Assembly (NCBI GenBank): GCA_050250895.1
Contig: JBFWNU010000001.1
Coordinates: 2,884,891 to 2,948,890 of the forward strand
DNA from: Vulcanimicrobiota bacterium
GTDB taxonomy: Bacteria > Vulcanimicrobiota > Xenobia > Xenobiales > JADMJV01
DNA: 64,000 nucleotides
Direction of reading: 5' to 3'
Both the position numbers and the translations under genes were made by a program. Under the pieces are notes generated by a model. That model was not told where the DNA came from. It searched no databases and saw only the letters and a list, made by a program, of their open reading frames with translations. Positions 14,341-54,513 of this stretch are shown here, in pieces (position 1 is the stretch's first letter; each line of letters begins with the position of its first letter).

Positions 14341-14410
14341 GTAACGGAGTGGAACTGCGAAACGAATTCGCAGTCCAGCCGCCCTTATCCTGTCAACCTA
14401 TCTGCGATGC

Positions 14411-15145: not shown

Positions 15146-15150
15146 GAAAT

Positions 15151-25757: not shown

Positions 25758-26252
25758 TCACTGGGACCGATGAGGCATCCAACACCATGCGCCGCACCGT
25801 CCTCCAATATAGTTGGGTGTTTTGCTACAATCAATCACAGGCTTGGAGGCCATGTCCCTTGCTCTTCTAGAGGATCGGGTCTCGGCGGGCTTACCAAGGA
25901 ATCGCATCAGCACCCAGATGAGGTTCGCGGACTTGGCCGGCACCAGGGCCCGATTGTAGCCCGAGCGGGAGCCGACCGAGCGCACGATGTTGGTCGAGTA
26001 GGGCGCGTGGTCGAACTCACAGGTCAACTGCAACTCGAACTCATTTGTTGGCCTGCGCAGCAGCCCGCGCGGGCCCTCGATGCCCGGGTCAGGGTGCCGC
26101 GAACTCACCTGGTCTTTCCATCGCCGGCCTCGAAAGGGCGGCAGGGCGGCGAACTGGTGACGGATACGGGCCCGCCAGTCGGGTGCGGCCAGGCGCCGGT
26201 GGCCTGGCGAGAACAGGGTATGATTGAGTGTGATCTCGGTCCGGGGCTTCAC
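25758..26252 (-). pseudogene. Chimeric ORF containing an in-frame fragment of a PilX-like gene
   Basis: GTG start overlaps the upstream stop. Contains APYSTNIVRSVGSRSGYNRALVPAK versus APYSTNNVRSAGSRSGFNRALVPAK in the 503-aa protein. Confidence 0.4.
25932..26008. repeat. 77-bp direct copy of 31748-31824 (inside PilX-like gene 1)
   Basis: Manual alignment: 7 mismatches in 77 bp, no gaps. Confidence 0.9.
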
Positions 26253-27515: not shown

Positions 27516-27580
27516 CGACGGCTGCACAGTCCAGGGCGTCCCCATCGGCGGCTTCGCGGGGGACGGCATCCCATCGAACG
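27516..27580. repeat. 65-bp direct copy of 30008-30072 (inside lipoprotein gene 1)
   Basis: Manual alignment: 7 mismatches in 65 bp. Encodes DGCTVQGVPIGGFAGDGIPSN versus DGCTVQGLHIGGFAGDGITSN. Confidence 0.9.
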
Positions 27581-29354: not shown

Positions 29355-30584
29355 GTGAAACGCTTTCTACTCCTCATCTTGCTCGCCGCTTGCCTGGCGG
29401 GCTGCGACAATAGTAGCGATGACTTCTTCGGCACACCGAGCAATCCGGTGTCAGCCCCGCAAGCCGTCAACGACGCTTACAACGGGCTCGGCAACGCTCC
29501 CCTCAGCGTGGCCCTCGCCCAGGGAGTCCTGGTCAACGACACCGTCCCAGCGCCCGTCACGGCCTTCCAGAACCCCAGCGCCCAGGGAGCCACCGTAGCC
29601 GTCAACGCCGACGGCTCGTTCACGTACACCCCGGTCAACGGCTTTCAGGGTGCGGACACGTTTACTTACACGACGACCAACTCCAGCGGTCAATCCACCG
29701 CCACGGTGACGCTCAATGTCGCCAACACGGCTCGCTTCGTCAATAACACCGCCGCCCCCGGCAATCCGGGCACCTTCGCCGCCCCCTTCAGCAGCTTGGC
29801 TGAAGCTCAAGCTAACTCCGTCCCTGGCGACACCATCTTCGTCTTTCGCGGCAATGGCAACCCCTACACCGGCATCACCCTTCAGAACAATCAGCGCCTC
29901 ATCGGTGAAGGCTCGGGCCTGGTGGTGGCTCGCCAGGACGTTCTGGCTCAGGGCACGGTCGTTCCCCAGGGCCCCTTCCCCATCATCGGCGGCACGGTCA
30001 TCATGGCCGACGGCTGCACCGTCCAGGGCCTCCATATCGGCGGATTCGCGGGGGACGGCATCACGTCGAACGGCGTGGATGGGACGATTGTGGGCAACGA
30101 GTTTGCCGATATCACGAACCCTGGGAACGTTGGGAACCAGGCTATGGACTTCGATCTCACTTCGGGAGCTTGGACGATTCAGGGGAACAATTTCGTAGAT
30201 ATTCAGGCCGGCGCCATCGTGGTTTCTGGGGCCCTTCTGTCAGGCACGGCAACCTATGTTTTTACAGACAATATTGCCAATAATACAGGCGCGATGGTCT
30301 TCTTCGGGGCAGCGGGTACGTCACAAATCCGGGCACAGGTGTCGCGGAATTCCATAGTTGGTGCAGTGGCCGTTGATTCCTTTAGCTTTGTGGCGGGCGA
30401 CCAGGCGACCTTGTGTTTGGACTTAGAGGGCAATTCAACCGACCAGATGTATAGCTTTGGAAACTCCGCGACATCGACGCTCAATGTTGAGCAGTTTGCA
30501 AGTTTGAATTCACTCAACAATGGGACCGGCAACATCGTTACCGGGACCATCACGGAGGTCGCCAATGGCTTTTGCAATTTCTAA
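29355..30584 (+). CDS. Lipoprotein with Ig-like (Big_9/cadherin-like) and beta-helix domains, copy 1
   Basis: GTG 29355, lipobox LAGC, PQAVNDAY...GVLVND...VNADGSFTYTP...DTFTYT, then a beta-helix cap GTFAAPFSSL...GDTIFV. Confidence 0.8.
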   Translation: MKRFLLLILLAACLAGCDNSSDDFFGTPSNPVSAPQAVNDAYNGLGNAPLSVALAQGVLVNDTVPAPVTAFQNPSAQGATVAVNADGSFTYTPVNGFQGADTFTYTTTNSSGQSTATVTLNVANTARFVNNTAAPGNPGTFAAPFSSLAEAQANSVPGDTIFVFRGNGNPYTGITLQNNQRLIGEGSGLVVARQDVLAQGTVVPQGPFPIIGGTVIMADGCTVQGLHIGGFAGDGITSNGVDGTIVGNEFADITNPGNVGNQAMDFDLTSGAWTIQGNNFVDIQAGAIVVSGALLSGTATYVFTDNIANNTGAMVFFGAAGTSQIRAQVSRNSIVGAVAVDSFSFVAGDQATLCLDLEGNSTDQMYSFGNSATSTLNVEQFASLNSLNNGTGNIVTGTITEVANGFCNF

Positions 30585-32092
30585 TTGGTGCCCTTCCACG
30601 TTAGCACGGCCGAACCATCCAGCATTTGGGCGTATCGATCCGTCCGGTTGAGGCTTAGGCTAAACACGTCAATCTGCGTAGCGTCGCCGGGCGTATGTTG
30701 GGCGAGTTGGCTCAAGAAGATGGCCCGCACACGCGCCAGTTCTTGCTGTCCTCTTAGCCTTTGAGTTAGGGGCAGATCCTGTGCTCGTCGGTAGAGGACG
30801 CCTTGATACTGTATATTCAGCAAAGACTCGTCCAGAACGTAGGTGGCCGCATCACCTCGCATCGATCCTGGCTCCACGGGAAAGAGACTAAGTGGAACTG
30901 ATGGAATCACGATTCCAACAATTCCGGATTGAGTGTGGTCGTCTTCCCCAATCATCACCTGACTAACCACCTCCATCTCGGTCAACTCCGGAGCGAGCAC
31001 CATGCGCACATCTCGCAACTCCATCGGGCGGGTGGTCTCCTTCGAGACCACCGCGCCGACGACCGTGACATCCGAAGCGGCGAAGCGGCCGCCGGAGTAG
31101 ACGAGGCCCTGAAAGCGCGAACTCACGCGGCCCTCGCCCTGAATGGTCACATCACCATCAGCCACCAGAGCGGTCATCGCCGACTCGGTCCGCATCGAGC
31201 CACGCACGACCACGTTGCCGGTGCACACGATGGCGCCGTGGCCGGTGATGTCGCCGTTGATGGTCAGGTCGCCATCGACCCACAGCAAGCCGTCGTCGAG
31301 GGCCAGGTCGCCGAGGCTCAGCGAGCCGAGATTGTAGCAGCGACCGGACACCTCGGAGTCACCCTGGTAGGCGTAGGCATAGTCGAGGGCGCGCGGGTCG
31401 AACTGGCCGGCACTGACCGACGGCAGCTCTTCGGGAGCGTGGTTCGCCAGCACCCTCCCAGCCGTCGACCGGGTCAGGGTGATCGAGCCCACCGCCTGGG
31501 CGTCTCCCAGCACTTCGCTGTCGCTGAGCACGGCACTGCCATTGGTGACCAGGTTGCCGGGGCGGCGGTCGTCTTCGTCGAGCCCGTCCTCGAGAGCGGC
31601 CAGACTATCCACCGAGAAGACCTCGAGGTTCGAGCCGTTCAGGGGCCCGGCGGCGGCCAGCGAGTAGGGGAAGGGCGGGAAGTGGATGTAGGCCTCGCGC
31701 ACGACCGTCTTGTTATTACAGCGTCCCACGGCTACCAGGTGGACGGTCTTGGCCGGCACCAGGGCTCGGTTGAAGCCCGAGCGTGAGCCGGCCGAGCGCA
31801 CGTTGTTGGTGGAGTAGGGCGCGTCACCCTCGGCGAAGGTGAGCGTGCCCAGCGCCTCGCGCGAGGGAGCGTAGTGTAGCTCGCCGGCGAAGTCGGCATC
31901 GGCCTTGAGTTCGCCGATGGCCTGGTAGATGACCGAGTCGGCGCACAGGCTCGCCTGGGCCCGATTTGCCTCGGCAGTGGTTACCTGCAGTTGGGTGGTC
32001 ATTCCGGCGGTGAGGGTGAAGATGAGCGTGGCCATCACCAGGGTGAACAGGATGACTCCGAGCAAAGTGTTTCCGGCGTGGTGTCTTTTCAT
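30581..32092 (-). CDS. PilX/GspK-like minor (pseudo)pilin with beta-solenoid body, copy 1
   Basis: Class III-like leader KRHHAG|NTLLGVILF without E5, and A..CADS..YQA. G-rich beta repeats. The stop overlaps the lipoprotein stop. Confidence 0.65.
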   Translation of the reverse strand: MKRHHAGNTLLGVILFTLVMATLIFTLTAGMTTQLQVTTAEANRAQASLCADSVIYQAIGELKADADFAGELHYAPSREALGTLTFAEGDAPYSTNNVRSAGSRSGFNRALVPAKTVHLVAVGRCNNKTVVREAYIHFPPFPYSLAAAGPLNGSNLEVFSVDSLAALEDGLDEDDRRPGNLVTNGSAVLSDSEVLGDAQAVGSITLTRSTAGRVLANHAPEELPSVSAGQFDPRALDYAYAYQGDSEVSGRCYNLGSLSLGDLALDDGLLWVDGDLTINGDITGHGAIVCTGNVVVRGSMRTESAMTALVADGDVTIQGEGRVSSRFQGLVYSGGRFAASDVTVVGAVVSKETTRPMELRDVRMVLAPELTEMEVVSQVMIGEDDHTQSGIVGIVIPSVPLSLFPVEPGSMRGDAATYVLDESLLNIQYQGVLYRRAQDLPLTQRLRGQQELARVRAIFLSQLAQHTPGDATQIDVFSLSLNRTDRYAQMLDGSAVLTWKGTN

Positions 32093-32131
32093 AGGTCCTA
32101 TCCTAGCGAGAAGTGAGCGGGCGTTCGGTGA

Positions 32132-33160
32132 TCATGGGCAAACTTGCGAGAGATTGGTCAGGGGCAGGGCCAGCTGGATGGCTAGAAAGCCCACGAACAG
32201 GCCCATTCCGGCCATGGCCACCGGCTCGATGGCGGCCATCAGGGTGGCGATGCGATAGTCGAGCTCTTCTTCGAGCAAGCGGGCGCAGCGCTCGAGCATG
32301 GCCTCGAGCTTGCCGCAGCGTTCGCCCGAGTCGACCATGGTCAACACCATCTTGGGCAGCTCGATGCGGGAGAGGGTCCGCGACAGGCTGGCTCCCTGGC
32401 CGATGGCCCGAAGGGCGGGCCGGGCGTGCGCCTCTAGCAGGGGGTCGGTCGTGGAACGAAGTGACGACCCCACTGCCTTATCGAGGCGCACGCCCACCCG
32501 GACCTGTAAGACCAGCCCTCGCACGAAGCGAAGGGCTCCCGCGGTGGCCAGCAGCTTGTTGAGATAGGGGACCCGATTGGCCAGTTGGCGCAGTCGGGTC
32601 CGCTGCTGGGTCAGGGTCTCGCGCAGGAAGTGGCGGGCCGGCCAGGCGATCAGCAGAGCCAGGGGCAGCAGCCAGGCGGCCCATTGCGACAGGGCCACCA
32701 GGTGCAGCATCGAGGCGGGCGGATTGGGCAGGCTCTGGGCCAGGCCCGAGAACAGCTGGCCGATGGAGAGAAAGATGAGCAGGGCCAGGGACATCACCAC
32801 CAGCGGATAGGCGAGCACTCCGAGCAGTCGGCGGCGCAGCTGGTCCTGGCTCTCTTCGTGGTCGGCCAGTTCATGCAGCACGCGCACCAGGCTGCCGGTC
32901 TCTTCGCCCATCATGAGCAGGCGCAGGTGAAAGTTGGAAAAGCAGCTCCGGTAACGGGCCAGAGCGTGGGACAGCGGCTGGCCGCAACGCACCAGCGCGG
33001 CCGAGCCCAGGCACACGGCCGAGAGCTGCTCGTCACCACTGGGCACGATGCCTTCCAGAGCCCGGTCGATGCGGACTCCCGAGTCGAGCATGGTGGCCAG
33101 CGAGCGAAAGAAGAGCGCCCGGGATTGGTGAGCGAGGTGGAGCTTGGTTTCGTTTGCCAT
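32132..33160 (-). CDS. Type II secretion system F / PilC family protein
   Basis: FFRSLATMLDSGV, GEETGSL, LAYP, GERCGKL and IEP: two GspF domains. Confidence 0.9.
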   Translation of the reverse strand: MANETKLHLAHQSRALFFRSLATMLDSGVRIDRALEGIVPSGDEQLSAVCLGSAALVRCGQPLSHALARYRSCFSNFHLRLLMMGEETGSLVRVLHELADHEESQDQLRRRLLGVLAYPLVVMSLALLIFLSIGQLFSGLAQSLPNPPASMLHLVALSQWAAWLLPLALLIAWPARHFLRETLTQQRTRLRQLANRVPYLNKLLATAGALRFVRGLVLQVRVGVRLDKAVGSSLRSTTDPLLEAHARPALRAIGQGASLSRTLSRIELPKMVLTMVDSGERCGKLEAMLERCARLLEEELDYRIATLMAAIEPVAMAGMGLFVGFLAIQLALPLTNLSQVCP

Positions 33161-33166
33161 AGCCAC

Positions 33167-33283
33167 ACTCTAGTCGAGGTGGCGCGAGTCGCTCAGTGAC
33201 TCCCCTGACCGTCGTCTTGTGAACTAGATCACAATTTGGCTCCGATGTCGATCACGGAAAGTCCGACGGCCGCAAGCTAGACT
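33167..33283. promoter_or_regulatory. Divergent promoter pair with central CRP-type palindrome TTGTGA-ACTAGA-TCACAA (33217-33234) and flanking half-sites
   Basis: Perfect TGTGA-N6-TCACA. Half-sites GTGA 33196 and TCAC 33252. -10 hexamers TAGAGT (minus, 33172) and TAGACT (plus, 33278). Confidence 0.75.
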
Positions 33284-33289
33284 GGGGCT

Positions 33290-33640
33290 ATGAAACGCAA
33301 TCGAGGATTTTCCACCCTGAACGAGGTTTTCGCGATGGCCGTGCTGGGGCTGACCTTATTCACCTTCTTGGCGATGTCGGGACGCATCTTCGCGGCCAGT
33401 CGAGAAGCCCGCCATCGGCAGGCGGCCCAGAGCATCCTGGACAAGGTGGTGGCCGAGGTCCGGGCCCAGCCAGCCGCCTATGCCGACGGGTCCACTCGAC
33501 TCGACCCGGTGACCCTGGATGGGACGGAGTATCGTCCCCGTCTGACCGTCTCGGGCGGGCCGCTCCGTGATGTGACGGTCACAGTGGAATGGGGCCAGGG
33601 AACCAGCCAAACTCGCTACTTTCGAGTGCTGGAGCCCTAG
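33290..33640 (+). CDS. Prepilin-like small protein
   Basis: KRNRG|FSTLNEVFAMAVLGL hydrophobic leader and a C-terminal VTVTVEW typical of PilV-like pilins. Confidence 0.75.
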   Translation: MKRNRGFSTLNEVFAMAVLGLTLFTFLAMSGRIFAASREARHRQAAQSILDKVVAEVRAQPAAYADGSTRLDPVTLDGTEYRPRLTVSGGPLRDVTVTVEWGQGTSQTRYFRVLEP

Positions 33641-33862
33641 AGTTGGGCTAGAAAGGCCTCGAGCGTCGGAGCAGCCGCGGCCGCTTCGGCCAGAGCGGAA
33701 AGGCGTTTCGGATCCGACAACTCGTCCAGGCGTTGCAGAGCCTCCTCGCCAACCTCAGGGAACCGGAGTTGGCGCACCAGCCGCTGCTTGGCCCGGCGAC
33801 GGCGGTTGCTATCGGGACCGCCGGTGCGCGTGTGGAGATGGGCGACGACGACCGGACCGAAG
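33637..33862 (-). pseudogene. Internally deleted third Rpn paralog
   Basis: The minus frame reads FGPVVVAHLHTRTGGPDSNRRRRAKQRLVRQL|RFPEVGEEALQRLDELSDPKRLSALAEAAAAAPTLEAFLAQL*, i.e. two non-adjacent Rpn segments joined in frame. Confidence 0.8.
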
Positions 33863-33992
33863 AGATTGTTAACTCTGGCGGAGCCCCCATGAAGGTTCCC
33901 CCGGTAGAGCGACGCGGCTGCGGCGTGCGGGTTCGGGGAACCTCAAGACCAAGAATACCAGCCGGACGGCCGGGCGTCGGTGAAATTTTCCC
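33858..33992. repeat. 135-bp repeat, copy 1 (Rpn upstream region)
   Basis: Near-identical to 35009-35143 and 36148-36282. Contains an AGGTTCCCC...GGGGAACCT inverted repeat and TGGTATTCT (extended -10-like) on the minus strand. Confidence 0.95.
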
Positions 33993-34952
33993 TCAGAGTT
34001 CGGCCAGAAAGGCGTCTATCGTCGGGGCGGTGGCAGCCTTTAGCGCCAGGGAGGATAGGCGCTCCCGGTCCGTCAATTCGTCGAGGCAGGACAGGGTCTC
34101 TTCGGCTACCTCGGGGAACCGGCCCATGAGGACTGTCCTGACGGCCTCTCTCAGACCCTCCGTCCGACCCTCGACCCGGCCCTGTTCCAGACCCTGTTCC
34201 AGGCCCTGCTGCAGGCCCTTCTTGATCCCGATTCTCTCGACGCTGGTGATGTAAGGCATGTTGTTCTTCCTCTCATAGATTTCTAGATTGTGCCAGAAGA
34301 CTCCCGCCTGGCGTTCTGACAGACGCAAGAACCAATCGATGAGCCGAAAGAGTTGGCGGATGTCCTTGCGGCTGAAGCCTGATTTGTGGAGCTGGCGCAC
34401 CAGCCGCTGCTTGGCCCGTTGTCGACGATCGCTATCCGGGCCACCGGTGCGCGTGTGAAGATGAGCGGCCACGACTGGGCCGAAGGGGTTCTTGCTCTGC
34501 TCAAGAGCCGGCAGGTCAGCGCGAAACTCCTCGAGTTTGACCACTGGAAAGTCGAGGCGGTGGCGGCAACCGAGCAACTCTTCCTGGTAGCTGTCGGGAC
34601 GCCAGGTCGGGCTAGGATCGCCCAGCACCACCAGGGTGCAGACGGGCAGACCAAGGCCCAGCCGGATGCGATAGTGGTAGTCAAAGAGGCGTTCGGGAAA
34701 ATCTTGCTTGGTCTGGTTTTGCACCTCGATGTGGATCAGGATGAGAGTGGCCATGCCGCCCGTCATCGTGACCTGCATCAGGACATCAACCCGGCGGGGG
34801 CCGGCCGCCGGACTGAGCAGCTCGGTCTCTTTCACCTGCCAACCGAGGCTCCAGTCGATGGCCAGGTACACCTCGGGAAAGAGCAGTTCGAGGAACTGGG
34901 GAAAGTAGACGTGCAGCGCCTCTTTCCAGGGGGAGTCGTATTCCTGTGCCAC
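33993..34952 (-). CDS. Rpn family recombination-promoting nuclease / putative transposase, copy A
   Basis: YDSPWKEAL, RRVDVL, LIHIEVQ (PD-(D/E)XK), MPYITSVERIG and GLEQ repeats. GGAGG before the GTG start. Confidence 0.9.
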   Translation of the reverse strand: MAQEYDSPWKEALHVYFPQFLELLFPEVYLAIDWSLGWQVKETELLSPAAGPRRVDVLMQVTMTGGMATLILIHIEVQNQTKQDFPERLFDYHYRIRLGLGLPVCTLVVLGDPSPTWRPDSYQEELLGCRHRLDFPVVKLEEFRADLPALEQSKNPFGPVVAAHLHTRTGGPDSDRRQRAKQRLVRQLHKSGFSRKDIRQLFRLIDWFLRLSERQAGVFWHNLEIYERKNNMPYITSVERIGIKKGLQQGLEQGLEQGRVEGRTEGLREAVRTVLMGRFPEVAEETLSCLDELTDRERLSSLALKAATAPTIDAFLAEL

Positions 34953-35008
34953 GCAGACCTCCAGTGAGCGGATCTGGGTGGCTTCTACGACCTCCGGGCG
35001 GCTCCCGT

Positions 35009-35143
35009 CGAAGAGATTGTTAACTCTGGCGGAGCCCCCATGAAGGTTCCCCCGGTAGAGCGACGCGGCTGCGGCGTGCGGGTTCGGGGAACCTCAAGAC
35101 CAAGAATACCAGCCGGACGGCGGGGCGTCGGTGAAATTTTCCC
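35009..35143. repeat. 135-bp repeat, copy 2
   Basis: Direct repeat of 33858-33992. Confidence 0.95.
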
Positions 35144-36091
35144 CTACAGTTCGGTCAGGAAGTCATCAACCGTTGGCGCTGTAGCGGCTTTGAGAGCTAG
35201 GGCGGACAGACGCTCTTGGTCGGTTAGCTCGTCGAGGCAGGACAGGGTCTCTTCGGCTACCTCGGGGAACCGGCCGATGAGGACTGTCCTGACGGCCTCT
35301 CTCAGACCCTCCGTCCGACCCTCGACCCGGCCCTGTTCCAGGCCCTGCTGCAGGCCCTTCTTGATCCCGATTTTCTCGACGCTGGTGATGTAAGGCATGT
35401 TGTTCTTCCTCTCATAGATTTCTAGATTGTGCCAGAAGACTCCCGCCTGGCGTTCTGACAGACGCAAGAACCAATCGATGAGCCGAAAGAGTTGGCGGAT
35501 GTCCTTGCGGCTGAAGCCTGATTTGTGGAGCTGGCGCACCAGCCGCTGCTTGGCCCGTTGTCGACGATCGCTATCCGGGCCACCGGTGCGCGTGTGAAGA
35601 TGAGCGGCCACGACTGGGCCGAAGGGGTTCTTGCTCTGCTCAAGAGCCGGCAGGTCAGCGCGAAACTCCTCGAGTTTGACCACTGGAAAGTCGAGGCGGT
35701 GGCGGCAACCGAGCAACTCTTCCTGGTAGCTGTCGGGACGCCAGGTCGGGCTAGGATCGCCCAGCACCACCAGGGTGCAGACGGGCAGACCAAGGCCCAG
35801 CCGGATGCGATAGTGGTAGTCAAAGAGGCGTTCGGGAAAATCTTGCTTGGTCTGGTTTTGCACCTCGATGTGGATCAGGATGAGAGTGGCCATGCCGCCC
35901 GTCATCGTGACCTGCATCAGGACATCAACCCGGCGGGGGCCGGCCGCCGGACTGAGCAGCTCGGTCTCTTTCACCTGCCAACCGAGGCTCCAGTCGATGG
36001 CCAGGTACACCTCGGGAAAGAGCAGTTCGAGGAACTGGGGAAAGTAGACGTGCAGCGCCTCTTTCCAGGGGGAGTCGTATTCCTGTGCCAC
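35144..36091 (-). CDS. Rpn family nuclease, copy B (tandem duplicate)
   Basis: Essentially identical to copy A except for one fewer GLEQ repeat, two substitutions and a diverged last ~85 nt. Confidence 0.9.
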   Translation of the reverse strand: MAQEYDSPWKEALHVYFPQFLELLFPEVYLAIDWSLGWQVKETELLSPAAGPRRVDVLMQVTMTGGMATLILIHIEVQNQTKQDFPERLFDYHYRIRLGLGLPVCTLVVLGDPSPTWRPDSYQEELLGCRHRLDFPVVKLEEFRADLPALEQSKNPFGPVVAAHLHTRTGGPDSDRRQRAKQRLVRQLHKSGFSRKDIRQLFRLIDWFLRLSERQAGVFWHNLEIYERKNNMPYITSVEKIGIKKGLQQGLEQGRVEGRTEGLREAVRTVLIGRFPEVAEETLSCLDELTDQERLSALALKAATAPTVDDFLTEL

Positions 36092-36147
36092 GCAGACCTC
36101 CAGTGAGCGGATCTGGGTGGCTTCTACGACCTCCGGGCGGCTCCCGT

Positions 36148-36282
36148 CGAAGAGATTGTTAACTCTGGCGGAGCCCCCATGAAGGTTCCCCCGGTAGAGC
36201 GACGCGGCTGCGGCGTGCGGGTTCGGGGAACCTCAAGACCAAGAATACCAGCCTGACGGCTGGGCGTCGGTGAAATTTTCCC
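36148..36282. repeat. 135-bp repeat, copy 3
   Basis: Direct repeat of 33858-33992. Confidence 0.95.
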
Positions 36283-36289
36283 CCGCCGG

Positions 36290-37042
36290 CTAGTAGAGCC
36301 GATAGAAGCGAAAGGCCTTGGGCCACTCTACCCGGGGGCAGAAGGCGAGGGCGACGGGCTGGTCGCCTAAGGCCGATTCGCGGATCACGATGTGGTGCTC
36401 GAAGGCTTGGGCCTGCTCGAATTCGCGCTGACTGACCCGGCACACGACCTTGTGAAAGCGGCTGTAAAGCCAGCACCGCAGCTGCCAGGCCTGCGAGAAG
36501 CGCTCGATGCAAGCCACGGCCGCGTGGGCGGCGGCTACGATGGCCCGGCCGGGGGCGAGGTCTTCTTGGACCAGGATGTACATCTTGAGCTGGTCTTCGT
36601 AGAAGTCGTCCAGGCGTTCGTATTCGGCCGCCTGGTCGCTGACCCAAGCGACCGCCTCGTCGACACCCGCATGAAGCTGGGCCCCGGGCAAGAGGCTGTC
36701 GAGGTGGCAGTCGGGGCCGGCCACGACGGCGATGGGGAAAGCCGGTAAGACGGGGTCAGGGTCGAGGCAGAACAGGCGCAACAGGCTGTCGCCCCACGAG
36801 TAGGCGAGCCGAGAGAAGTCGAGCACCAGGCCGTGGGGGTGGCAGAGGTGGTAGTAGCGATGAAACTCCGACTCCATGAAGGCGGCGTCGGCGTTGCCGG
36901 GCGAGCCGGGGCGATACTCGCCGTGAAAGGCCAAAACCAGAACGGGCCTGGCGAACTCGGCGCGACAGCTAAGCGAGCTGAAGTCGGCGGGGTTGATCAC
37001 ACCGCGTGGGACACATAGGACAATGATAGCCAATATTGCCAT
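36290..37042 (-). CDS. Protein with C-terminal peptidyl-tRNA hydrolase 2 (PTH2)-like domain
   Basis: KMYILV...GRAIVAAAHAAV...W...FHKVVCRV...VALAFCP. The N-terminal ~140 aa are unrecognised and the start is uncertain. Confidence 0.7.
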   Translation of the reverse strand: MAILAIIVLCVPRGVINPADFSSLSCRAEFARPVLVLAFHGEYRPGSPGNADAAFMESEFHRYYHLCHPHGLVLDFSRLAYSWGDSLLRLFCLDPDPVLPAFPIAVVAGPDCHLDSLLPGAQLHAGVDEAVAWVSDQAAEYERLDDFYEDQLKMYILVQEDLAPGRAIVAAAHAAVACIERFSQAWQLRCWLYSRFHKVVCRVSQREFEQAQAFEHHIVIRESALGDQPVALAFCPRVEWPKAFRFYRLY

Positions 37043-37102
37043 CTTGTCAAGGGGGCGGGCCGGGCAAGATGACCTGGCGTCTCCCGACAGCTACAATAGA
37101 GG

Positions 37103-37186
37103 GACCGGCTTCGGTGGTCGTGTTGTCGTGGAGGCAGCACTCGGCGAGGGCTACTCGTGCAGCGCGCTCGGCCATCAGCAGAGCCT
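37103..37186. repeat. Degenerate copy of 42305-42384 (5' part of a PilX-like gene)
   Basis: Shared TTCGGTGGTCGTGTTGTC and CTCGGCCATCAGCAGAGCCT blocks with indels between them. Confidence 0.8.
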
Positions 37187-37237
37187 CCGTATGGGGGGCG
37201 GGACAGGGCAGTTACGGGCGGTGACGAAGCCCAGACC

Positions 37238-38476
37238 ATGGATAGGAAGATGTTACTCCTGGCTGTGCTGCTCTTGTTGGCCTTTGGTTGTGATTCCGAA
37301 GACGTCAACTTCCCGAGCGGAAGCACTCCCGTGATCGGCCCGGCAGCGGCCAACGACACCTATAACGCGGTGGTCAACGCGCCGCTCACTGCGACTGCGG
37401 CTCAGGGGGTGCTGCTCAACGACCCGGTCCCGGCCCCCGTGACCGCCTTCGACAACCCCAGTGCCCAGGGCGGCACGGTAGCGGTCAATGCCGACGGCTC
37501 CTTCACCTACACGCCGGCCAACAACTTCCAGGGCACGGACACCTTCACCTATACCACCGCCAACGGCAGCGGTCAGGCCTCCGCAACGGTTACCGTGACA
37601 GTCGCCGGTGGGGTCATCTTCGTGAATAACCAGTCCGGTGGAGGCACGGGCGGCTTCAACGACCCCTTCCCGACCCTGGCCCAGGCAGTGGCCGCTTCGG
37701 TCCCCGGTGACACCATCTTCCTGTTCCGCGGCAACGGCACAACCAACGGCTACAACACTCCCGTGCAACTCAAAGCCAACCAGCGCCTGGTCGGCGAGGG
37801 CACCGGCCTCATCACCGCCCGCCAGGACATCCTGGCTCAAGGCACCGTCGTGCCCTCTGGAGCCTTCCCTGTCCTGACCGGCCCGGTCACGATGGCCGAC
37901 GGCTGCACCGTTCAGGGTTTGCGCTTTGAAAACCCCAGCAATATGATGGCGAATGTGTTCGCCGTAACGGTTCCGGTGACACCCGTGGTCACAGATGGGA
38001 CCGTCAGCAACAACCAGTTCATTGGTTATGGCGCGGGAGTGGAAGTATCAAGTGCCGTAGGCACCTGGACCATCCGCGAGAACTTATTTCAGAATGGCAT
38101 AGTGGCCATCGTCATAAACGGAGCCCTCCTCAGTGGACAGACCACTTACTTCATCACGGACAACCGGGCGCAAGGCTTCGGTCAGTTTCTGTTTCTCTCC
38201 GCCGCCAACAATGCCAATGTGAGAGCCCAGTTGCTGAACAACGTTGTCGTGAACCCGACCGGCACCCGTAGCTTCGTCTTCGACGCTCGCGACAACGGCG
38301 TCTTGTGTCTCGACTTGGTCAGCAATGATGGGGCCGGAGATTTCGAATTTGGCCAATTCGACTTGAGCGTTCTCAGCGTTGAGCAATTCTTACAGCTGGG
38401 CACGCTGAACACGGGCTCAGTGACTGTGCCGTTCGGGACCGTCACGGAGGTGGTCGATGGATTTTGCGGCTTCTAG
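37238..38476 (+). CDS. Ig-like/beta-helix lipoprotein, copy 2
   Basis: ATG 37238, lipobox AFGC, same domain motifs as copy 1, ends DGFCGF. Confidence 0.85.
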   Translation: MDRKMLLLAVLLLLAFGCDSEDVNFPSGSTPVIGPAAANDTYNAVVNAPLTATAAQGVLLNDPVPAPVTAFDNPSAQGGTVAVNADGSFTYTPANNFQGTDTFTYTTANGSGQASATVTVTVAGGVIFVNNQSGGGTGGFNDPFPTLAQAVAASVPGDTIFLFRGNGTTNGYNTPVQLKANQRLVGEGTGLITARQDILAQGTVVPSGAFPVLTGPVTMADGCTVQGLRFENPSNMMANVFAVTVPVTPVVTDGTVSNNQFIGYGAGVEVSSAVGTWTIRENLFQNGIVAIVINGALLSGQTTYFITDNRAQGFGQFLFLSAANNANVRAQLLNNVVVNPTGTRSFVFDARDNGVLCLDLVSNDGAGDFEFGQFDLSVLSVEQFLQLGTLNTGSVTVPFGTVTEVVDGFCGF

Positions 38477-39706
38477 CGAGTCCGCCAGACGACCACACGG
38501 AGGCGATCTCCCTCGGAGAGGAGTTGGTCGAGATCCAGCCGGAAGAACACACCCGAGTGTCCTATGTTGGCCTCCGCGATCCGCGTTCGCCAGGCCGATT
38601 CCACACGCGGCCAATATCTTGCAGCTGCGCTGCGGACGGGGCCTGGGGGCAGTTGCTGCCAATCCGAGAATGTCTCGGTAACTGACCGGCCTTCTTCGTC
38701 CGGATGGGTCCATTGAAGCGACAACTTGGAGGGATCCCACGCGTAACCACCCCTTCCGTCTGCGAAATCGCTAATTTGCAGTGGGGAGACTTGCAGCCCA
38801 TAGAGGCGAGCTGTGTCATCTGCGAGGTTCAACCGATCCTCCAGTTCAATATGCCCGGCCTCCGGCGCGTAGTAGAGGCGAGTGTCCTCGAGGTGCATGT
38901 CGCCCTGGGCGAGCAGCACGCCACGCACCTCGAGGTTATCGGCGGAGAAGCCGCCCTGGGTGGCCACCAGGCCGGTGAACACCGAGCCCTCACCGTGCAG
39001 CGTCACATCGCCGCCGGCCACCAGGGCGGTCAGGCCGGTGCTGGTCAACTGCGAGCCGCCGTGGACTTCCAGGCGACCGGTGCAGACCACGGCCCCCTGG
39101 CCGCGGATACCTCCGTGGACCACCAGGTCGCCGTCGACGTAGAGCAAGCCGCCGTCGAGGTCGAGGCCGTCACCGACGATCAAATCGCCCTGGCGGCGGG
39201 CGGGGCCGGCGACCGAGAGACGGTTCTCGAAGCTCGAGTCGAGCGAGCGCAGGTTGAGCTGGCCACGCGGGTCATAGGTGGTGGGGTCGATGGTGGCGAT
39301 GGCCTGGGCTTCGGAGAAGGGGCGCAGCTGGCCGCGCACCAGGCCGTGATTGTCCACCGAGCCGACCGCGCGCGCGTCGCCCAGCACCTCGCACTGTTGG
39401 CCCAGCACCAGAGCGGGACCGTTGCTATCGGTGGCGTTGCTCAGGATGTGGCCAGGAAAGAGCTCGTCCGGGTTGAGGCCATTCTCGAAGGCGGCCAGGT
39501 TCTCGACCGAGCCGACCAGCACGCGATCGGCCTCGATGCGCCCGTTCGAGGCGATCGAGTAGGGAAAGGGCGGGATGTGCAAGATGGCCTCGCGCACCAC
39601 CTGGCGGCCGCGACAGCTGCCGACAGCTACCAGGTGAATGGCGTGGGCCGGGACCATCGTGTGGCCGTAGCCCTCGCGCGGAGTCGACGAGGCCAGGTTG
39701 TTGAGA
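38473..39706 (-). pseudogene. 5'-truncated PilX-like gene, copy 2 (394-aa ORF lacking the prepilin leader)
   Basis: Homology to copy 3 stops abruptly at 39706; the first ~100 codons, including the leader, are missing. The remaining frame is intact. Confidence 0.75.
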
Positions 39707-39767
39707 AATCCCGCCTGCTCACCGAGCCCCGAACAGGGCAGTTCCGGGCGGTGACGAAGCCCAGACC

Positions 39768-41009
39768 ATGGATAAGAAGATGTTACTCCTGGCTGTGCTG
39801 CTCTTGTTGGCCTTTGGTTGTGATTCCGAAGACGTCAACTTCCCGAGCGGAAGCACTCCCGTGATCGGCCCAGCAGCGGCCAACGACACCTATAACGCGG
39901 TGGTCAACGCGCCGCTCACCGCCACTGCGGCTCAGGGGGTGCTGCTCAACGACCCGGTCCCGGCCCCCGTGACCGCTTTCGACAACCCCAGCGCCCAGGG
40001 CGGCACGGTAGCGGTGAATGCCGACGGCTCCTTCACCTACACGCCGGCCAACAACTTCCAGGGCACGGACACCTTCACCTATACCACCGCCAACGGCAGC
40101 GGTCAGGCCTCCGCAACGGTTACCGTGACAGTCGCCGGTGGGGTCATCTTCGTGAATAACCAGTCCGGTGGAGGCACGGGCGGCTTCAACGACCCCTTCC
40201 CGACCCTGGCCCAGGCAGTGGCCGCTTCGGTCCCCGGTGACACCATCTTCCTGTTCCGCGGCAACGGCACAACCAACGGCTACAACACTCCCGTGCAACT
40301 CAAAGCCAACCAGCGCCTGGTCGGCGAGGGCATCGGCCTCATCACCGCCCGCCAGGACATCCTGGCTCAGGGCACCGTCGTGCCCTCTGGAGCCTTCCCC
40401 GTCTTGACCGGCCCGGTCACGATGGCCGACGGCTGCACGGTCCAGGGTTTGCGCTTTGAAAACCCCAGCAATATGATGGTCAACACCTTCGCTGTCCTGG
40501 TCCCGGTCGTGCCCGTGGTGACTGACGGCACGATCAGCAACAACCAGTTCGTCGGCTACGGCGGCGGAGTGGACATCTCCAGCGGCGTGGGCACGTGGAA
40601 CCTGAGGAACAACTTATTCCAGAATGGGTTGGCCGCGATTTCTGTTAACGGCGCCCTGCAGAGTGGACAATCCACGTTTCTCATCACTGGTAACCGGGCC
40701 GAGGACTACGGCCAACTCCTGTTCATTTCCGCCGCTAACCTGGCTCAGGTGAGAGCCCAGGTGCGCAACAATGTAGTTGTCAACCCCACTAGTATACTCA
40801 TCTTTGTCTTCGATGCGGCGGACAACGGAGTTCTATGTCTCGACCTGGTTGGCAACGACGCGGCGAGCGGTTTGTTCGAGTTTGGTCAGTTCGATACAAG
40901 CACTCTGAATGTCGAGCAGTTCTCTCAAGTGAGTACACTGAATTCAGGGCAGGTCTCGGCGCTTACCGGGACCGTGACGGAGGTCGCGGACGGATTCTGT
41001 GGGTTCTAG
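39768..41009 (+). CDS. Ig-like/beta-helix lipoprotein, copy 3
   Basis: Near-identical to copy 2 up to ENPSNMM and diverged after it. Confidence 0.85.
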   Translation: MDKKMLLLAVLLLLAFGCDSEDVNFPSGSTPVIGPAAANDTYNAVVNAPLTATAAQGVLLNDPVPAPVTAFDNPSAQGGTVAVNADGSFTYTPANNFQGTDTFTYTTANGSGQASATVTVTVAGGVIFVNNQSGGGTGGFNDPFPTLAQAVAASVPGDTIFLFRGNGTTNGYNTPVQLKANQRLVGEGIGLITARQDILAQGTVVPSGAFPVLTGPVTMADGCTVQGLRFENPSNMMVNTFAVLVPVVPVVTDGTISNNQFVGYGGGVDISSGVGTWNLRNNLFQNGLAAISVNGALQSGQSTFLITGNRAEDYGQLLFISAANLAQVRAQVRNNVVVNPTSILIFVFDAADNGVLCLDLVGNDAASGLFEFGQFDTSTLNVEQFSQVSTLNSGQVSALTGTVTEVADGFCGF

Positions 41010-42532
41010 CGGCTTCGCCAAAGGACGATGCGCAAACGATCTGCTGCTGACAGTAGTTGATCGAGGTCCAGCCGGAATAGGAGTCTGGAATGCCCCTGGT
41101 TGGCTCTATCGATAGCTGATCGCCAGTCCGACTCCACACGCGACCAAAATCTTCCACCGTCTCTGCGGATCGGTCCCGGAGGCAGGAGTCGCCAATCCGA
41201 AAACGTCTCGGTTATCATGCTGCCTGCTCCGTCTGGATGGCTCCACTGGATCGACAACTTGGAAGGGTCCCAGGCGTAACCACCCTGTCCGTCCGCGAAG
41301 TCGCTAAGCTGGAGGCGGGGTAGACTCAGTCCTCTCAGTTCTGCCTGGGGGTCCTCCTCCACTTCCAACGTCCCTCCCAATTCAATGTGCCCGGCCTCAG
41401 GCACGTAGTAGAGGCGTGTGTCCTCCAGGTGCATGTCGCCCTGGGCGAGCAGCACGCCACGCACCTCGAGGTTGTCGGCGGAGAAGCCGCCCTGAGTGGC
41501 CACCAGGCCGGTGAACACCGAGCCCTCGCCGTGGAGCGTCACATCGCCGCCGGCCACCAGAGCCGTTAGGCCGGTGCTGGTCAACTGCGAGCCGCCGTTG
41601 ACTTCGAGGCGACCCGTGCAGACCACGGCACCCTGGCCGCGGATACCGCCGTGGACCACCAGGTCGCCGTCGACGTAGAGCAAGCCGCCGTCGAGGTCGA
41701 GGCCGTCACCGACGATCATGTCGCCCTGGCGCCGGGCGGGGCCGGCTACCGAGAGGCGGTTCTCGAAGCTCGAGTCGAGCGAGCGCAGGTTGAGCTGGCC
41801 GCGCGGGTCATAGGTGGTGGGGTCGATGGTGGCGATCGCCTGGGCTTCGGAGAAGGGGCGCAACTGGCCGCGCACCAGGCCGTGATTGTCCACCGAGCCG
41901 ACCGCCCGAGCGTCGCCCAGCACCTCGCACTGTGCGCCCAGCACCAGAGCGGGACCGTTGCTGTCGGTAGCGTTGCTCAGGATGTGCCCGGGGAAGAGCT
42001 CGTCCGGGTTGAGGCCATTCTCGAAGGCGGCCAGATTCTCGACCGAGCCGACCAGCACCCGGTCGGCCTCGATGCGGCCGTTCGAGGCGATCGAGTAGGG
42101 AAAGGGCGGGATGTGCAAGATGGCCTCGCGCACCACCTGGCGGCCGCGACAGCTGCCGATAGCTACCAGGTGAATGGCGTGGGCCGGGACCATCGTGTGG
42201 CCGTAGCCCTCGCGCGGAGTCGACGAGGCCAGGTTGTTGAGAGAGTATGGTGCATCACCCGCGGTGAAGCTGAGATGGGCCTCGCACTCGCCCGAGAGTA
42301 GAGTGACGGGTTCGGTGGTCGTGTTGTCCGAGAGTACGCGGCGAGCGGCTACCCGCAGGGCGCTCTCGGCCATCAGCAGAGCCTGCTCGCGGCCCTCGGC
42401 GTTGCGAGCCCGGGCCAGGTGCCCGCAGACCAGGTTGGCCAGGGTCAACAGCAGCATCGAGGCCAGTGCCGTCAACACCAGCACTCCCGCCAACCCCATG
42501 CCTTTACGTTTGTTGCTTGGTTGCGTGTTCAT
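41006..42532 (-). CDS. PilX/GspK-like minor pilin, copy 3
   Basis: KRKG|MGLAGVLVL leader, A..MAESA, and EAILHIPPFPYSIA shared with copy 1. ATG at 42532. Confidence 0.7.
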   Translation of the reverse strand: MNTQPSNKRKGMGLAGVLVLTALASMLLLTLANLVCGHLARARNAEGREQALLMAESALRVAARRVLSDNTTTEPVTLLSGECEAHLSFTAGDAPYSLNNLASSTPREGYGHTMVPAHAIHLVAIGSCRGRQVVREAILHIPPFPYSIASNGRIEADRVLVGSVENLAAFENGLNPDELFPGHILSNATDSNGPALVLGAQCEVLGDARAVGSVDNHGLVRGQLRPFSEAQAIATIDPTTYDPRGQLNLRSLDSSFENRLSVAGPARRQGDMIVGDGLDLDGGLLYVDGDLVVHGGIRGQGAVVCTGRLEVNGGSQLTSTGLTALVAGGDVTLHGEGSVFTGLVATQGGFSADNLEVRGVLLAQGDMHLEDTRLYYVPEAGHIELGGTLEVEEDPQAELRGLSLPRLQLSDFADGQGGYAWDPSKLSIQWSHPDGAGSMITETFSDWRLLPPGPIRRDGGRFWSRVESDWRSAIDRANQGHSRLLFRLDLDQLLSAADRLRIVLWRSR

Positions 42533-42655: not shown

Positions 42656-42674
42656 GGGGCCAATGGAGGTGCTT

Positions 42675-43013
42675 ATGCACAAGCGAAGAGGGTTCTCCCT
42701 GCTGGAGATGACCACGGCGGTCGGGGTGGCCGCAGTCATGGTGATGACTTTTCTCTCGACCGTGTTTCCCACGGTGGTCGCCAATCGGCGCGCCGAGATC
42801 AGGCTGCAGGCCCAGGATATCGCCCTGGCGTGTCTGGTCGACAGTGAGGAGCTGCCGGCCGGCGAAGCGACCTTGGAGCCGGTCGCCCGCAATGGCAAAA
42901 GCTTTCAGCGCAAGGTGTCCAAGGTGGCGGGACCGGACGGGATGTTCCAGGTCGTCGCTACCGTCGTTTGCGATGGCGTCGAGGTTCGACGCAGTCTGGT
43001 GGTGGCCCGATGA
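42675..43013 (+). CDS. Prepilin-type N-terminal cleavage/methylation protein
   Basis: KRRG|FSLLEM with E5; GGAGG SD. Confidence 0.85.
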   Translation: MHKRRGFSLLEMTTAVGVAAVMVMTFLSTVFPTVVANRRAEIRLQAQDIALACLVDSEELPAGEATLEPVARNGKSFQRKVSKVAGPDGMFQVVATVVCDGVEVRRSLVVAR

Positions 43014-43540
43014 ACCGCCGTCGAGGAATGAGTCTGCCCGAGCTTCTCATTGCCATCGCGATCATGGCCCTGGTCGCACCGATCGTTCTCAGAGGGCTGA
43101 GCCTGGCGGCCAGTGTCTATCGATCCGAGTCGCACCGCGTGGCGGTGAGCCAGCAGGCGCAAACCGTCTTTGACATCCTTCAGTTGGATCTCGACCGTTC
43201 GGCCCCCGAAGGAGTGCAGGTGGATGGCGATCGATTGGCCGTCCAGTTCATCGACGGGTTTACTCCCTCGGGTCAGCGCCATTGGGGCTCGCAGCTGGCG
43301 GTGTATTGGCTGCACGACGGCGAGTTGCGGCGCGAGGTGGTCCAGGTCGAGGCGGATCCGGGCCTGCCCAGGCGCGGCATTCCCGAGGTCGGTGGCGGAC
43401 GGCGACTGGCGCTCGAGGTCGAGCGATTCGAGCTTTCGCTGGGTGGCGACAGGGCGAGCTGTCAGCTCACCCTGGCCGGACTCGAGCGGGGGCGCACCCT
43501 GCTGATGATGAGTGGCTTTGACCTGGCCTCGCTACGGTGA
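43010..43540 (+). CDS. Prepilin-type protein (PilW/GspJ-like)
   Basis: RRRG|MSLPELLIAIAI; ATGA overlap with the previous gene. Confidence 0.85.
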   Translation: MNRRRGMSLPELLIAIAIMALVAPIVLRGLSLAASVYRSESHRVAVSQQAQTVFDILQLDLDRSAPEGVQVDGDRLAVQFIDGFTPSGQRHWGSQLAVYWLHDGELRREVVQVEADPGLPRRGIPEVGGGRRLALEVERFELSLGGDRASCQLTLAGLERGRTLLMMSGFDLASLR

Positions 43541-43602
43541 CCGGGATCACCCGGGCGCACCGGGGTCTGTCACTGAGAGGCGGTTCGTTGGCGGGCTACA
43601 AT
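43536..43602 (+). promoter_or_regulatory. GGTGA-N6-TCACC site, TCAC half-site and -10 TACAAT
   Basis: Sites at 43536-43551, 43570 and 43597, with spacing matching the other pilus promoters. Confidence 0.6.
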
Positions 43603-43626
43603 CTGAGAAACTCTAGGAGGCAAACC

Positions 43627-44946
43627 ATGCGAAAGATTCTCTTGTTCTTGCTACTCTTCTTGCCGGCGGCCGGCCAGGATATGCGCCAGGTGGTGGTGCG
43701 CACCAATCCTCCCGGAGCCGAGGTTTATCGAGTCGATGTCAGCGAGCCCGGCGACGGCTATCTGGGTGTCAGCGGCGAGCAGCCGATTCTGCTCCCGGTG
43801 GGCGACTTCGAGGTGGTCATCAGCCTCGACGGACACGCTCCCTATAAGGGCTTCGTCAAGAGCTATCACACTCAGAATGGCGTCTGGCCCGAGCCTCCCC
43901 AGCCGGCCATCGAACTGAGTGCCCAGAGTCCGCTGGTGGCCCTGCGCGATGCCTGGCAGCTGCGGCCGGGGCTGGTCCTCACGGTGGCTCTGGGCGTACT
44001 CGGCGTGCTGGCCGGAGGGCTGGGACTGGTGGTGTCTCGGCGCGAGCGCCAGCGCCAGGCCCGCACCATCGAAGAACTGGAGTCGGTTCAGGAGGCTGGT
44101 GGAGACAATCTGCTCGGGCGCCTTCTGCCCACCGGGCATCGGCTGACCACCCTGCTGGGGGTAGGCGGGTTTGGCAAAGTTTATCTGGCCGACGGACCCG
44201 ACGAGCAGGCTGCGGTGAAGATTCCGTTCTTCGACTGGATTACCGATCCTCGCGATTTGCGCGAGGCCCAGGGGCGCTTTGACCGCGAGATCGCCATCTG
44301 CGCTCGCATGAGTCACCCCAACATCGTGCGCATCTACGACTGGGGACAAGAGGAGAACTTCCACTACTTCGTGATGGAATACCTCGAGGGCAAGACCCTC
44401 AAAGCCAGCCTCGAGGAGTGGGAGCAAACGGGCCGCCCCCAGCTGGGCAGCCTCTATCGCCTGGCCGAGCAGCTCTTCGCTGGGCTCTGCTACGCTCACC
44501 ATAAGGGCGTCGCCCATCGCGACATCAAGCCCGAGAACATCATGCTGCGAGACTCCGGCCGGCTCAAGCTGATGGATTTCGGAGCCGCCTGGGGAGACAA
44601 GTTCGTCGAGGTCACCCGCACCGGTGGTGGGGTCTGCAGCCTGCTCTACGCTGCTCCCGAGTGCATCAATCCGGCCGCCGCCAAAGGCAAACGCGACTTC
44701 CGCGCTTTCGACCAGTTCTCGCTGGGAGTCGTGCTTTATGAGATGCTGGCCGGAGTGCGTCCCTTCGCCGACCATGACCTGCTCAAGATGACGCCGGCGC
44801 GTCCCGTTCGCCAACACAACCCCGAGGTTCCCGAGCAACTCGAGCGGGTGCTGGCACGAATGCTGGCCTTCCGTCCCGAGCAACGGTTCGACGACCTTCA
44901 CGAGGCTCGTCGGGCCTTCGAGGCGGCCGTTTCCCAACTGGTGTGA
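43627..44946 (+). CDS. Membrane Ser/Thr protein kinase with extracytoplasmic PEGA domain
   Basis: Signal peptide, VRTNPPGAEV (PEGA), TM, GVGGFGKV, AAVK, HRDIKPEN, DFG and YAAPE. AGGAGG SD. Confidence 0.9.
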   Translation: MRKILLFLLLFLPAAGQDMRQVVVRTNPPGAEVYRVDVSEPGDGYLGVSGEQPILLPVGDFEVVISLDGHAPYKGFVKSYHTQNGVWPEPPQPAIELSAQSPLVALRDAWQLRPGLVLTVALGVLGVLAGGLGLVVSRRERQRQARTIEELESVQEAGGDNLLGRLLPTGHRLTTLLGVGGFGKVYLADGPDEQAAVKIPFFDWITDPRDLREAQGRFDREIAICARMSHPNIVRIYDWGQEENFHYFVMEYLEGKTLKASLEEWEQTGRPQLGSLYRLAEQLFAGLCYAHHKGVAHRDIKPENIMLRDSGRLKLMDFGAAWGDKFVEVTRTGGGVCSLLYAAPECINPAAAKGKRDFRAFDQFSLGVVLYEMLAGVRPFADHDLLKMTPARPVRQHNPEVPEQLERVLARMLAFRPEQRFDDLHEARRAFEAAVSQLV

Positions 44947-45008
44947 CGACCATCACTCTCGACCCTCGACGCCAATCACTGCCTCGCCCGCGCCGCTACG
45001 ACTAGACT
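44942..45008 (+). promoter_or_regulatory. TGTGA-N6-TCACT site, TCAC half-site and -10 TAGACT
   Basis: Sites at 44942-44957, 44976 and 45003. Confidence 0.65.
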
Positions 45009-45029
45009 GAAGGCAGATTGGAGGCTAAC

Positions 45030-54462: not shown

Positions 54463-54513
54463 CCCATGGAGGAGTTATCCGTCGAGAGCGATTCCTCCCG
54501 TGGTATATTCCCC

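Follow-up and report, generated by a model that had tools for sequence, protein, structure and literature searches.

Organization of the three L/X units

We analyzed a 64,000-nt stretch of the genome of a Vulcanimicrobiota bacterium (assembly GCA_050250895.1, contig JBFWNU010000001.1, positions 2,884,891 to 2,948,890), here termed the window, which contains three convergent units of a lipoprotein gene (L) and a gene for a predicted tip pilin (X). The units are numbered 1 to 3 (L1/X1 and so on), and coordinates given without a locus label are positions in the window. The genes of the units, and the segments into which the units divide, are as follows:

L1, 29355..30584, plus strand: lipoprotein gene with a lipobox, a Big_9 immunoglobulin (Ig) domain, and a right-handed beta-helix; 54% identical to L3.
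Low-GC3 block of pair 1, 30075..30967: region of reduced GC content at third codon positions (GC3) that covers both 3′ ends, with GC3 change points at 30102 (L1) and 30967 (X1).
X1, 30581..32092, minus strand: full-length ComZ/GspK-like tip pilin; 36% identical to X3.
L arm of unit 2, 37203..37947: 35 bp of upstream sequence plus L codons 1 to 237.
L2, 37238..38476, plus strand: intact lipoprotein gene.
[quoted passage not shown]
X2, 38473..39706, minus strand: orphan; open frame from X3 codon 98 on, without signal or pilin helix.
Junction, 39707..39732: 26 bp linking truncated X2 to the 35 bp upstream of L3.
L3, 39768..41009, plus strand: intact lipoprotein gene.
Variable block V3, 40478..41380: positions aligned to V2.
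X3, 41006..42532, minus strand: full-length ComZ/GspK-like tip pilin with a pilin helix, a beta-solenoid (142 to 379), a variable domain, and a returning strand.

An earlier, sequence-only reading of the region had described three tail-to-tail gene pairs. The pairs do converge, with stop codons that overlap by 4 bp in each (CTAA at 30581–30584, CTAG at 38473–38476, and CTAG at 41006–41009), but X2 is not intact: its first 97 codons are missing. Unit 3 repeats unit 2 in direct tandem orientation, with a repeat length of ~2.53 kb and near-identical arms, as had been reported (733 of 747 sites match between 37203–37949 and 39733–40479, and 826 of 867 between 38840–39706 and 41376–42242). The central ~0.9 kb has diverged, with differences at 279 of 895 sites inside the block (37948–38844) versus 53 of 1607 outside it, and a two-breakpoint likelihood scan of the two units gains 191 log units versus 6.4 to 7.3 in five of five shuffles. 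The variable cassette that the sequence-only reading placed over both 3′ ends does span both, but its centre is colinear and homologous between the units (70% and 62% amino acid [aa] identity, the latter for the colinear tips of X2 and X3). Assembly collapse, which that reading had raised as a possible source of the identical arms, is unlikely: there are 14 differences between the arms on one side and 41 on the other, the contig has a length of 3.95 Mb, and a second assembly, that of the related locus L004 described below, has the same layout.

The two boundaries of the block behave differently. On the X side, the GC3 change points fall at the solenoid end, at codons 375 (X1), 381 (X2), and 382 (X3), and the variable block of X in L004 also begins at the position aligned to the solenoid end. 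The L-side boundary varies by genome, lying at codon 238 here and graded across codons 160 to 280 in L004. Shufflon-type sites were sought as a repeat pair at both breakpoints of the block, and none was found; the 26-bp junction has no other close copy in the window (best match, 19/26). The variable, graded L-side boundary and the lack of repeated sites are what ordinary homologous recombination would be expected to leave. As a separate observation, units 2 and 3 show zero differences over 316 bp (37487–37802 versus 40017–40332), which suggests recent conversion.

Composition and age of the variable block

The lower GC content that had been noted in the centres was borne out, at 0.58 in both units 2 and 3 versus 0.64 to 0.69 in the arms, as was the compositional shift in pair 1 (0.53 over 30075–30960 versus 0.64 and 0.66 on either side). 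GC3 drops from 0.81–0.89 outside the block to 0.61–0.73 inside it in units 2 and 3, and pair 1 falls likewise. When the last 130 codons are compared with the gene body, GC3 is lower in five of the six pair genes (p < 1e-4); L2 has the weakest drop (p = 0.07 with the 130-codon window and p = 0.012 with a 150-codon window). Among 22 other long open reading frames (ORFs) of the window, there was one 3′ GC3 drop (p = 0.004) and one rise (p = 0.014). Candidate sources of the low GC3 are a donor pool of lower GC content and escape from GC-biased conversion.

Synonymous sites separate block and arms still more sharply. Between units 2 and 3, the proportion of synonymous differences (pS) is 0.06 and 0.15 in the arms versus 0.75 and 0.60 in the centre, where the nonsynonymous distance (dN) is 0.20 to 0.28 and the ratio of dN to the synonymous distance (dS), taken by segment, is far below 1. 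Codons that encode identical amino acids nevertheless differ at 68 of 122 and 31 of 70 positions in the centre, against 11 of 230 and 34 of 281 in the arms, and this synonymous step persists in the protein-conserved termini of both genes (6 of 12 and 9 of 17 codons differ). Since synonymous sites approach saturation even where the protein is conserved, the common ancestor of the block must be much older than that of the arms, with the block unbroken through both stop codons. The synonymous-site step, together with its repetition in L004, suggests that the two 3′ ends are one inherited block, and the pattern as a whole indicates old alleles inherited together, not fast point mutation.

Several other sources of the diversity were set aside. 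Positive selection by point mutation as the main cause is contradicted by a dN far below dS. A diversity-generating retroelement is excluded by the absence of adenine bias, with A, C, G, and T sites differing at 0.27, 0.30, 0.28, and 0.36, respectively, and shufflon or other site-specific inversion is rejected because the units are direct repeats and no repeat pair occurs at the breakpoints. A general family scan of 47 window ORFs returned neither a reverse transcriptase nor any recombinase family.

Related loci

Relatives were gathered in one scan of GTDB with a single peptide pattern, which matched 20 stretches, 8 of which were confirmed, to give a narrow sample of seven loci (L001 to L007) in five genomes; named homologues belong to Vulcanimicrobiota and Candidatus Xenobia, and a profile search for further X relatives returned only four proteins, all already known. 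The pairing described by the sequence-only reading extends to these relatives: L and X converge at four of the seven loci (L002, L004, L005, and L007), with the same 4-bp stop overlap in L005 and L007 and a prepilin gene upstream of X in L007.

At L004, the order is an intact L (La), a truncated and frameshifted X, a second intact L (Lb), IS66, and an X that continues past the contig end. Identity between La and Lb is 97 to 100% up to codon 240 and 43 to 65% after codon 280; GC3 starts at 0.80 and 0.83 in the two genes and declines to 0.52 and 0.53, while that of the solo L in the same genome stays at 0.84 to 0.89. L004 is an independent replicate of the arrangement in this window, with L kept intact, X truncated, the centre mosaic, and GC3 depressed there. 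No GC3 drop occurs in L001, L003, or L006, at which L stands without X. Identity of the L tip and of the X tip correlate across loci (rho 0.50, 21 pairs), a value that we do not use, as the pairs are non-independent.

These observations bear on an ordinary account of the array, a tandem duplication in place in which gene conversion keeps the arms alike and loosely constrained C-termini drift, with no exchange between strains. The 316-bp identical tract suggests that conversion does occur (p about 0.003 at the arm-wide rate, the tract being chosen post hoc), a tandem duplication of Rpn-like genes also lies in the window, and tips are less conserved family-wide. Synonymous saturation would, however, demand a very long-lived orphan X2, whose frame is intact and whose dN lies far below dS; moreover, relaxed protein constraint neither raises synonymous divergence nor lowers GC3, and the anatomy recurs in L004. 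Duplication in place is accordingly the least probable of the explanations that we consider. A protein like X2 cannot enter a pilus, but the reading frame remains open and the centre bears the mark of purifying selection; we infer that this centre diverged while functional, in a working pair before truncation, and that the blocks are best read as alleles.

Other features of the relatives were also noted. The solo L genes of L003 (5119–7533) and L006 (10830–12761) face unrelated convergent neighbours, an ankyrin-like protein and a sulfatase, respectively. In L005, L (103–1403) is split over two frames near position 615, by a frameshift or an assembly error. The IS66 of L004 lies between Lb and X (12921–15540), and a hairpin with flanking A and T runs follows Lb, which the hairpin between L and X in L002 resembles. 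At L004 (7689–9302) and at L007 (6660–8609), the gene upstream of L, encoded on the other strand, has an HNH domain.

Scars and the proposed genetics of displacement

Beyond the three units, the window holds three fragments of X or L:

Scar, 25928..26008, minus strand: X1-like fragment, about codons 90 to 116, 90% nucleotide identity.
Scar, 27516..27580, plus strand: L1-like fragment, end of the conserved arm, 89% nucleotide identity to 30008–30072.
Scar, 37097..37186, minus strand: degenerate X3-like N-terminal fragment, about codons 48 to 78, 81% nucleotide identity, just upstream of L2.

The pairs do lie within 29355–42532, the range originally assigned to the feature, but further X and L scars lie outside that range or had gone unlisted, and displacement is probably involved as well. 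The scars at 25928–26008 and 27516–27580 sit among defence-island genes, interleaved with the right end of the island. The window comprises two pilin loci that are paralogs of one another. Both include PilC/GspF-like and minor-pilin genes, and in both a single full-length X stands at the end of the pilin operon, with displaced material trailing behind. Truncation points of X vary (about codons 48, 98, and 290), and each new unit begins a few tens of bases upstream of L; L is preceded by remnants of X at 37097 and 25928 and also at locus L002, where the remnant is N-terminal. In both tandem arrays (this window and L004), L is intact and X is truncated.

Very probably, alleles of the block are maintained in the population and are exchanged whole through homologous recombination between arms, supplemented by displacement. 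Because the genes lie tail to tail, their variable ends share a single 0.9-kb block with a conserved arm on either side, such that crossovers in both arms would replace the resident block. The sequence-only reading had proposed just such a double crossover, swapping both C-termini together, and the presence of one block between two arms supports it, but a double crossover alone cannot create a tandem array; the truncated X2 and the scars therefore point to displacement events. An incoming unit would occasionally be added by way of one homologous end and one illegitimate end just upstream of L, or by a circular intermediate, and such an addition would leave an intact L facing a 5′-truncated X, as in the tip displacement of rhs genes. 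A single deletion crossover between the X arms of the resulting array would then yield a full-length X with tip 2 facing L2, and one between the L arms would leave pair 3: either would leave a matched pair, and one crossover would suffice to switch type.

A number of observations weigh against this scheme or narrow its reach. The case for exchange comes from two genomes. Three of the seven loci (L001, L003, and L006), which form one clade, have L without X, although L001 ends 392 bp after L. Among the paired loci, L002 and L005 have no significant GC3 trough and L007 has a modest one, and the X tips of L005 and L007 (0.59) are no more diverged than the arm (0.63); because L002, L005, and L007 deviate in these ways, the diversifying state may be limited to some lineages. 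The L tip is less conserved than the arm across the family (0.32 versus 0.47 in 658 pairs), which implies that part of the protein divergence is intrinsic. Lastly, L is not always intact, given the fragment at 27516–27580 and the split L of L005.

Adjoining the X scar upstream of L2 is a gene (36290–37050) with a C-terminal Pth2-like domain and an 11/12 match to a sigma-70-like promoter (37050–37023), and a weaker plus-strand promoter match (37069–37097) points into L2.

Predicted structures of X and L

The model identifies X as a tip pilin of the ComZ/GspK type, encoded in a type IV filament locus. The X3 model (predicted local distance difference test [pLDDT] 71.8, predicted template modeling score [pTM] 0.53) has a hydrophobic N-terminal helix (14 to 68), the solenoid, and a low-confidence C-terminal domain, and its best Foldseek match is Thermus ComZ, a tip pilin in which a solenoid is inserted before the last pilin strand (PMC6561018; for this and all other papers cited, statements concern the parts of the source that were covered). 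In VIA-align comparisons, X3 matches ComZ (6qvi) with Z 14.4 and a root-mean-square deviation (rmsd) of 6.4 over 300 aligned positions spanning residues 44 to 508 at ~10% identity, its residues 142 to 379 match ice-binding-protein solenoids (Z 15 to 17), and X3 matches the Xcp minor-pseudopilin chain (XcpVWX, 6utu) up to residue 508 (Z 8.0, rmsd 2.2, 82 aligned). The GspK profile match of X is weak and below cutoff (E 2e-5). The PilX-like identity originally given to X thus agrees with its pilin fold, with the solenoid before the last pilin strand, and with the neighbouring pilin and platform genes. X has no Pfam or NCBIfam match to an RHS/YD core or other known toxin carrier, none of the three X tips matches Pfam, and sequence searches of solved structures with X3 and with its tip returned nothing below E 0.01.

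The L product, of ~410 aa, has a lipobox-like motif in all seven L genes examined (a pattern match only), and the L3 model shows a right-handed parallel beta-helix at residues 123 to 413 (pLDDT 75.6). Structural matches to the helix are tailspikes and polysaccharide lyases (Z 20 to 22, rmsd 2.4 to 3.3, 228 to 244 aligned). Modeled in this way, the beta-helix of L is a generic, pectate-lyase-like fold that does not in itself indicate function. In an alignment of 37 L sequences, the invariant columns are L, G, W, and N, and the sole acidic residue to reach 90% is one C-terminal Glu; there is no invariant acidic or basic set in this alignment, and no catalytic set is evident in it. A search of solved structures with the L3 sequence found nothing below E 0.01, and the L3 domain has three partial matches in Deinococcus plasmids and none in a phage collection.

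Possible reasons for the two ends to travel together

We regard the locus as a two-gene polymorphic module combining block inheritance with matched L and X ends, a view to which we give a little less than an even chance. More specifically, and tentatively, the block would be kept whole since both ends must match, most likely with L acting in self-recognition or exclusion by identifying its cognate X tip. L might, for example, block pilus-mediated attack or attachment among kin, and a displaced L would stay useful where a displaced X would not. What favours an action of L on its cognate X is the asymmetry of the two arrays, in which L is kept and X truncated, as it mirrors the retention of immunity genes elsewhere. 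Set against this, the asymmetry is less clear-cut given a scar derived from L and an L gene that is split in L005, and the fold of L resembles glycan-binding and glycan-degrading proteins, such that an external target fits equally well. Co-folding of X3 (40 to 508) with the L3 beta-helix gave a score of 0.00 (mark 0.32), which we count neither way. Carried further, the locus would resemble a plant self-incompatibility haplotype, with the ends of a ligand and a receptor in one anciently polymorphic, nonrecombining block; stored displaced receptors would let more strains be accepted as self, and identity would change with a single crossover. We consider this stronger version rather unlikely.

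The main rival to a matched-pair function is tuning to an external glycan: the block would be inherited without any recognition between L and X, both being adjusted to one outside target such as the capsule or a surface glycan of prey or host, with X as tip adhesin, L as binder or depolymerase, and orphan L genes widening the target range. The tailspike and polysaccharide lyase matches accord with it, the variable part covering the C-terminal turns of the beta-helix, as does the predatory lifestyle suggested for one family of this phylum (PMC9259500). However, the fold is generic and a catalytic set is not evident, and we judge an external target to be unlikely.

Alternatively, L might work together with X of its own cell as cargo or in assembly, for example as a secreted substrate that the pseudopilus tip engages or as an adhesin subunit associated with the tip, with a covarying interface and no role in telling self from nonself. 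Tip pilins paired with cargo are known (CofB-CofJ and TcpB-TcpF), as are lipoprotein substrates of type II secretion, and X has weak GspK matches and lies beside GspI-, GspJ-, and GspF-like genes. This reading leaves the intact L beside a truncated X unexplained, and L is convergent rather than cotranscribed and also exists as a solo gene; a cargo relationship is consequently improbable.

The sequence-only reading had suggested receptor escape next to a defence island. On this account, phages or predators would drive the change, and two independent surface proteins would merely hitchhike together. Pili and surface lipoproteins are common phage receptors, and a Dpd/TIR/NERD defence island does adjoin pair 1. 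No such island is evident around the four paired relatives, where the available flanking sequence is limited in length or interrupted by the end of a contig: of 46 ORFs with a minimum length of 180 aa, only 3 match PADLOC (two adjacent ORFs in L004, one of them of the Uma2 family, and a subtilase in L005). Independent escape would also favour free reassortment and not one block, retaining an old L would mean retaining an old receptor, and dN/dS in the centre is far below 1. Apart from the island in this window, the proposal finds no support, and we consider receptor escape very unlikely.

Comparison with known systems

The feature is real and recurrent, a variant of the displacement array in which the carrier is the pilus-tip protein and the partner gene is convergent and two-armed. 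In rhs tip displacement, a high-GC core has a low-GC variable end, and truncated core fragments of variable length are found (PMC2935791), and rhs orphans can be reactivated by recombination (PMC3967940). [quoted passage not shown] Unlike in Rhs arrays, a tip pilin serves as carrier, its tips are alleles homologous to one another (62 to 70% aa identity) rather than unrelated toxin domains, and the L partner, being convergent, gives a second conserved arm, with no co-oriented downstream immunity gene. Effector-immunity arrays of the Vibrio type VI secretion system (T6SS) form by sequential displacement (PMC5361080), and there, too, the partner is retained and the carrier displaced through homologous replacement and homology-facilitated illegitimate addition; the present arrays differ in having no T6SS gene, no recognizable toxin domain, a convergent layout, and homologous variable parts.

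With Thermus ComZ and with GspK/XcpX, X shares the pilin fold, the ice-binding-protein-like solenoid, and the last strand returning to the pilin domain (PMC6561018), but it is only ~10% identical to ComZ and has an extra variable domain after the solenoid, and the sections covered of the ComZ description mention neither a paired lipoprotein nor an orphan array. In the IncC Sfx/TraN system (PMC11493245), a lipoprotein gene likewise adjoins an adhesin gene and the pairing is group specific; that system belongs to a conjugative plasmid, has no orphan arrays in the passages covered, and is an analogue in function only, as a model for self-exclusion.

Pilus proteins are varied from silent or partial copies in the pilE/pilS system of Neisseria and the PilV shufflon of R64. 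Here, by contrast, two genes vary together, the pilin is a minor one of the tip, the breakpoints have no recombination-site repeats, and the alleles are deeply divergent in place of short conversion patches. At the level of listings and abstract openings, and apart from most subscription papers and supplements, the literature yielded no description of an L/X pair, which does not establish its absence from print.

Displacement and orphan arrays, known from toxin-immunity loci, would thereby extend to the tip protein of a type IV filament, in a simple arrangement where two variable proteins stay matched through recombination by virtue of nothing more than the orientation of their genes. The natural two-by-two set of alleles (X2 and X3 by L2 and L3), with the L004 set, offers a way to ask how pili tell self from target in a phylum that is largely uncultured. 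The sharp GC3 trough is a signature with which more such locked blocks could be found in single genomes.

Neighbourhood of the units

The remaining genes of the two pilin loci are as follows:

32132..33166, minus strand: PilC/GspF-like platform gene, upstream of and co-oriented with X1.
33290..33640, plus strand: PilV/GspI-like minor pilin of locus 1, 30% identical to the pilin at 42663.
42663..43540, plus strand: two prepilin-motif genes (PilV/GspI-like and PilW/GspJ-like), divergent from X3.
43537..46040, plus strand: membrane Ser/Thr kinase gene and second PilC/GspF-like gene, locus 2.

A promoter and terminator scan was uninformative (3 promoter-like sites with 1.2 expected and 12 terminator-like sites with 9.7 expected), and Rfam gave no matches over 24000–47000.

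The defence island (173–29218) includes DpdF, DpdH, DpdJ-like, and NERD-helicase genes and is interrupted by lower-GC3 TIR, AAA, and WD40-amidase genes. Between the two pilin loci, tandem Rpn-like genes (33993–34952 and 35144–36091; weak TIGR01784 match) are near-identical save for their C-terminal tails. They belong to a second, small variable-end array (33635–36282) with a deleted third copy (33635–33870) and three 135-bp repeats as separators, which fold no better than shuffled sequences. Farther downstream, kaiB and kaiC are followed by two PAS hybrid histidine kinases (52396–58081).

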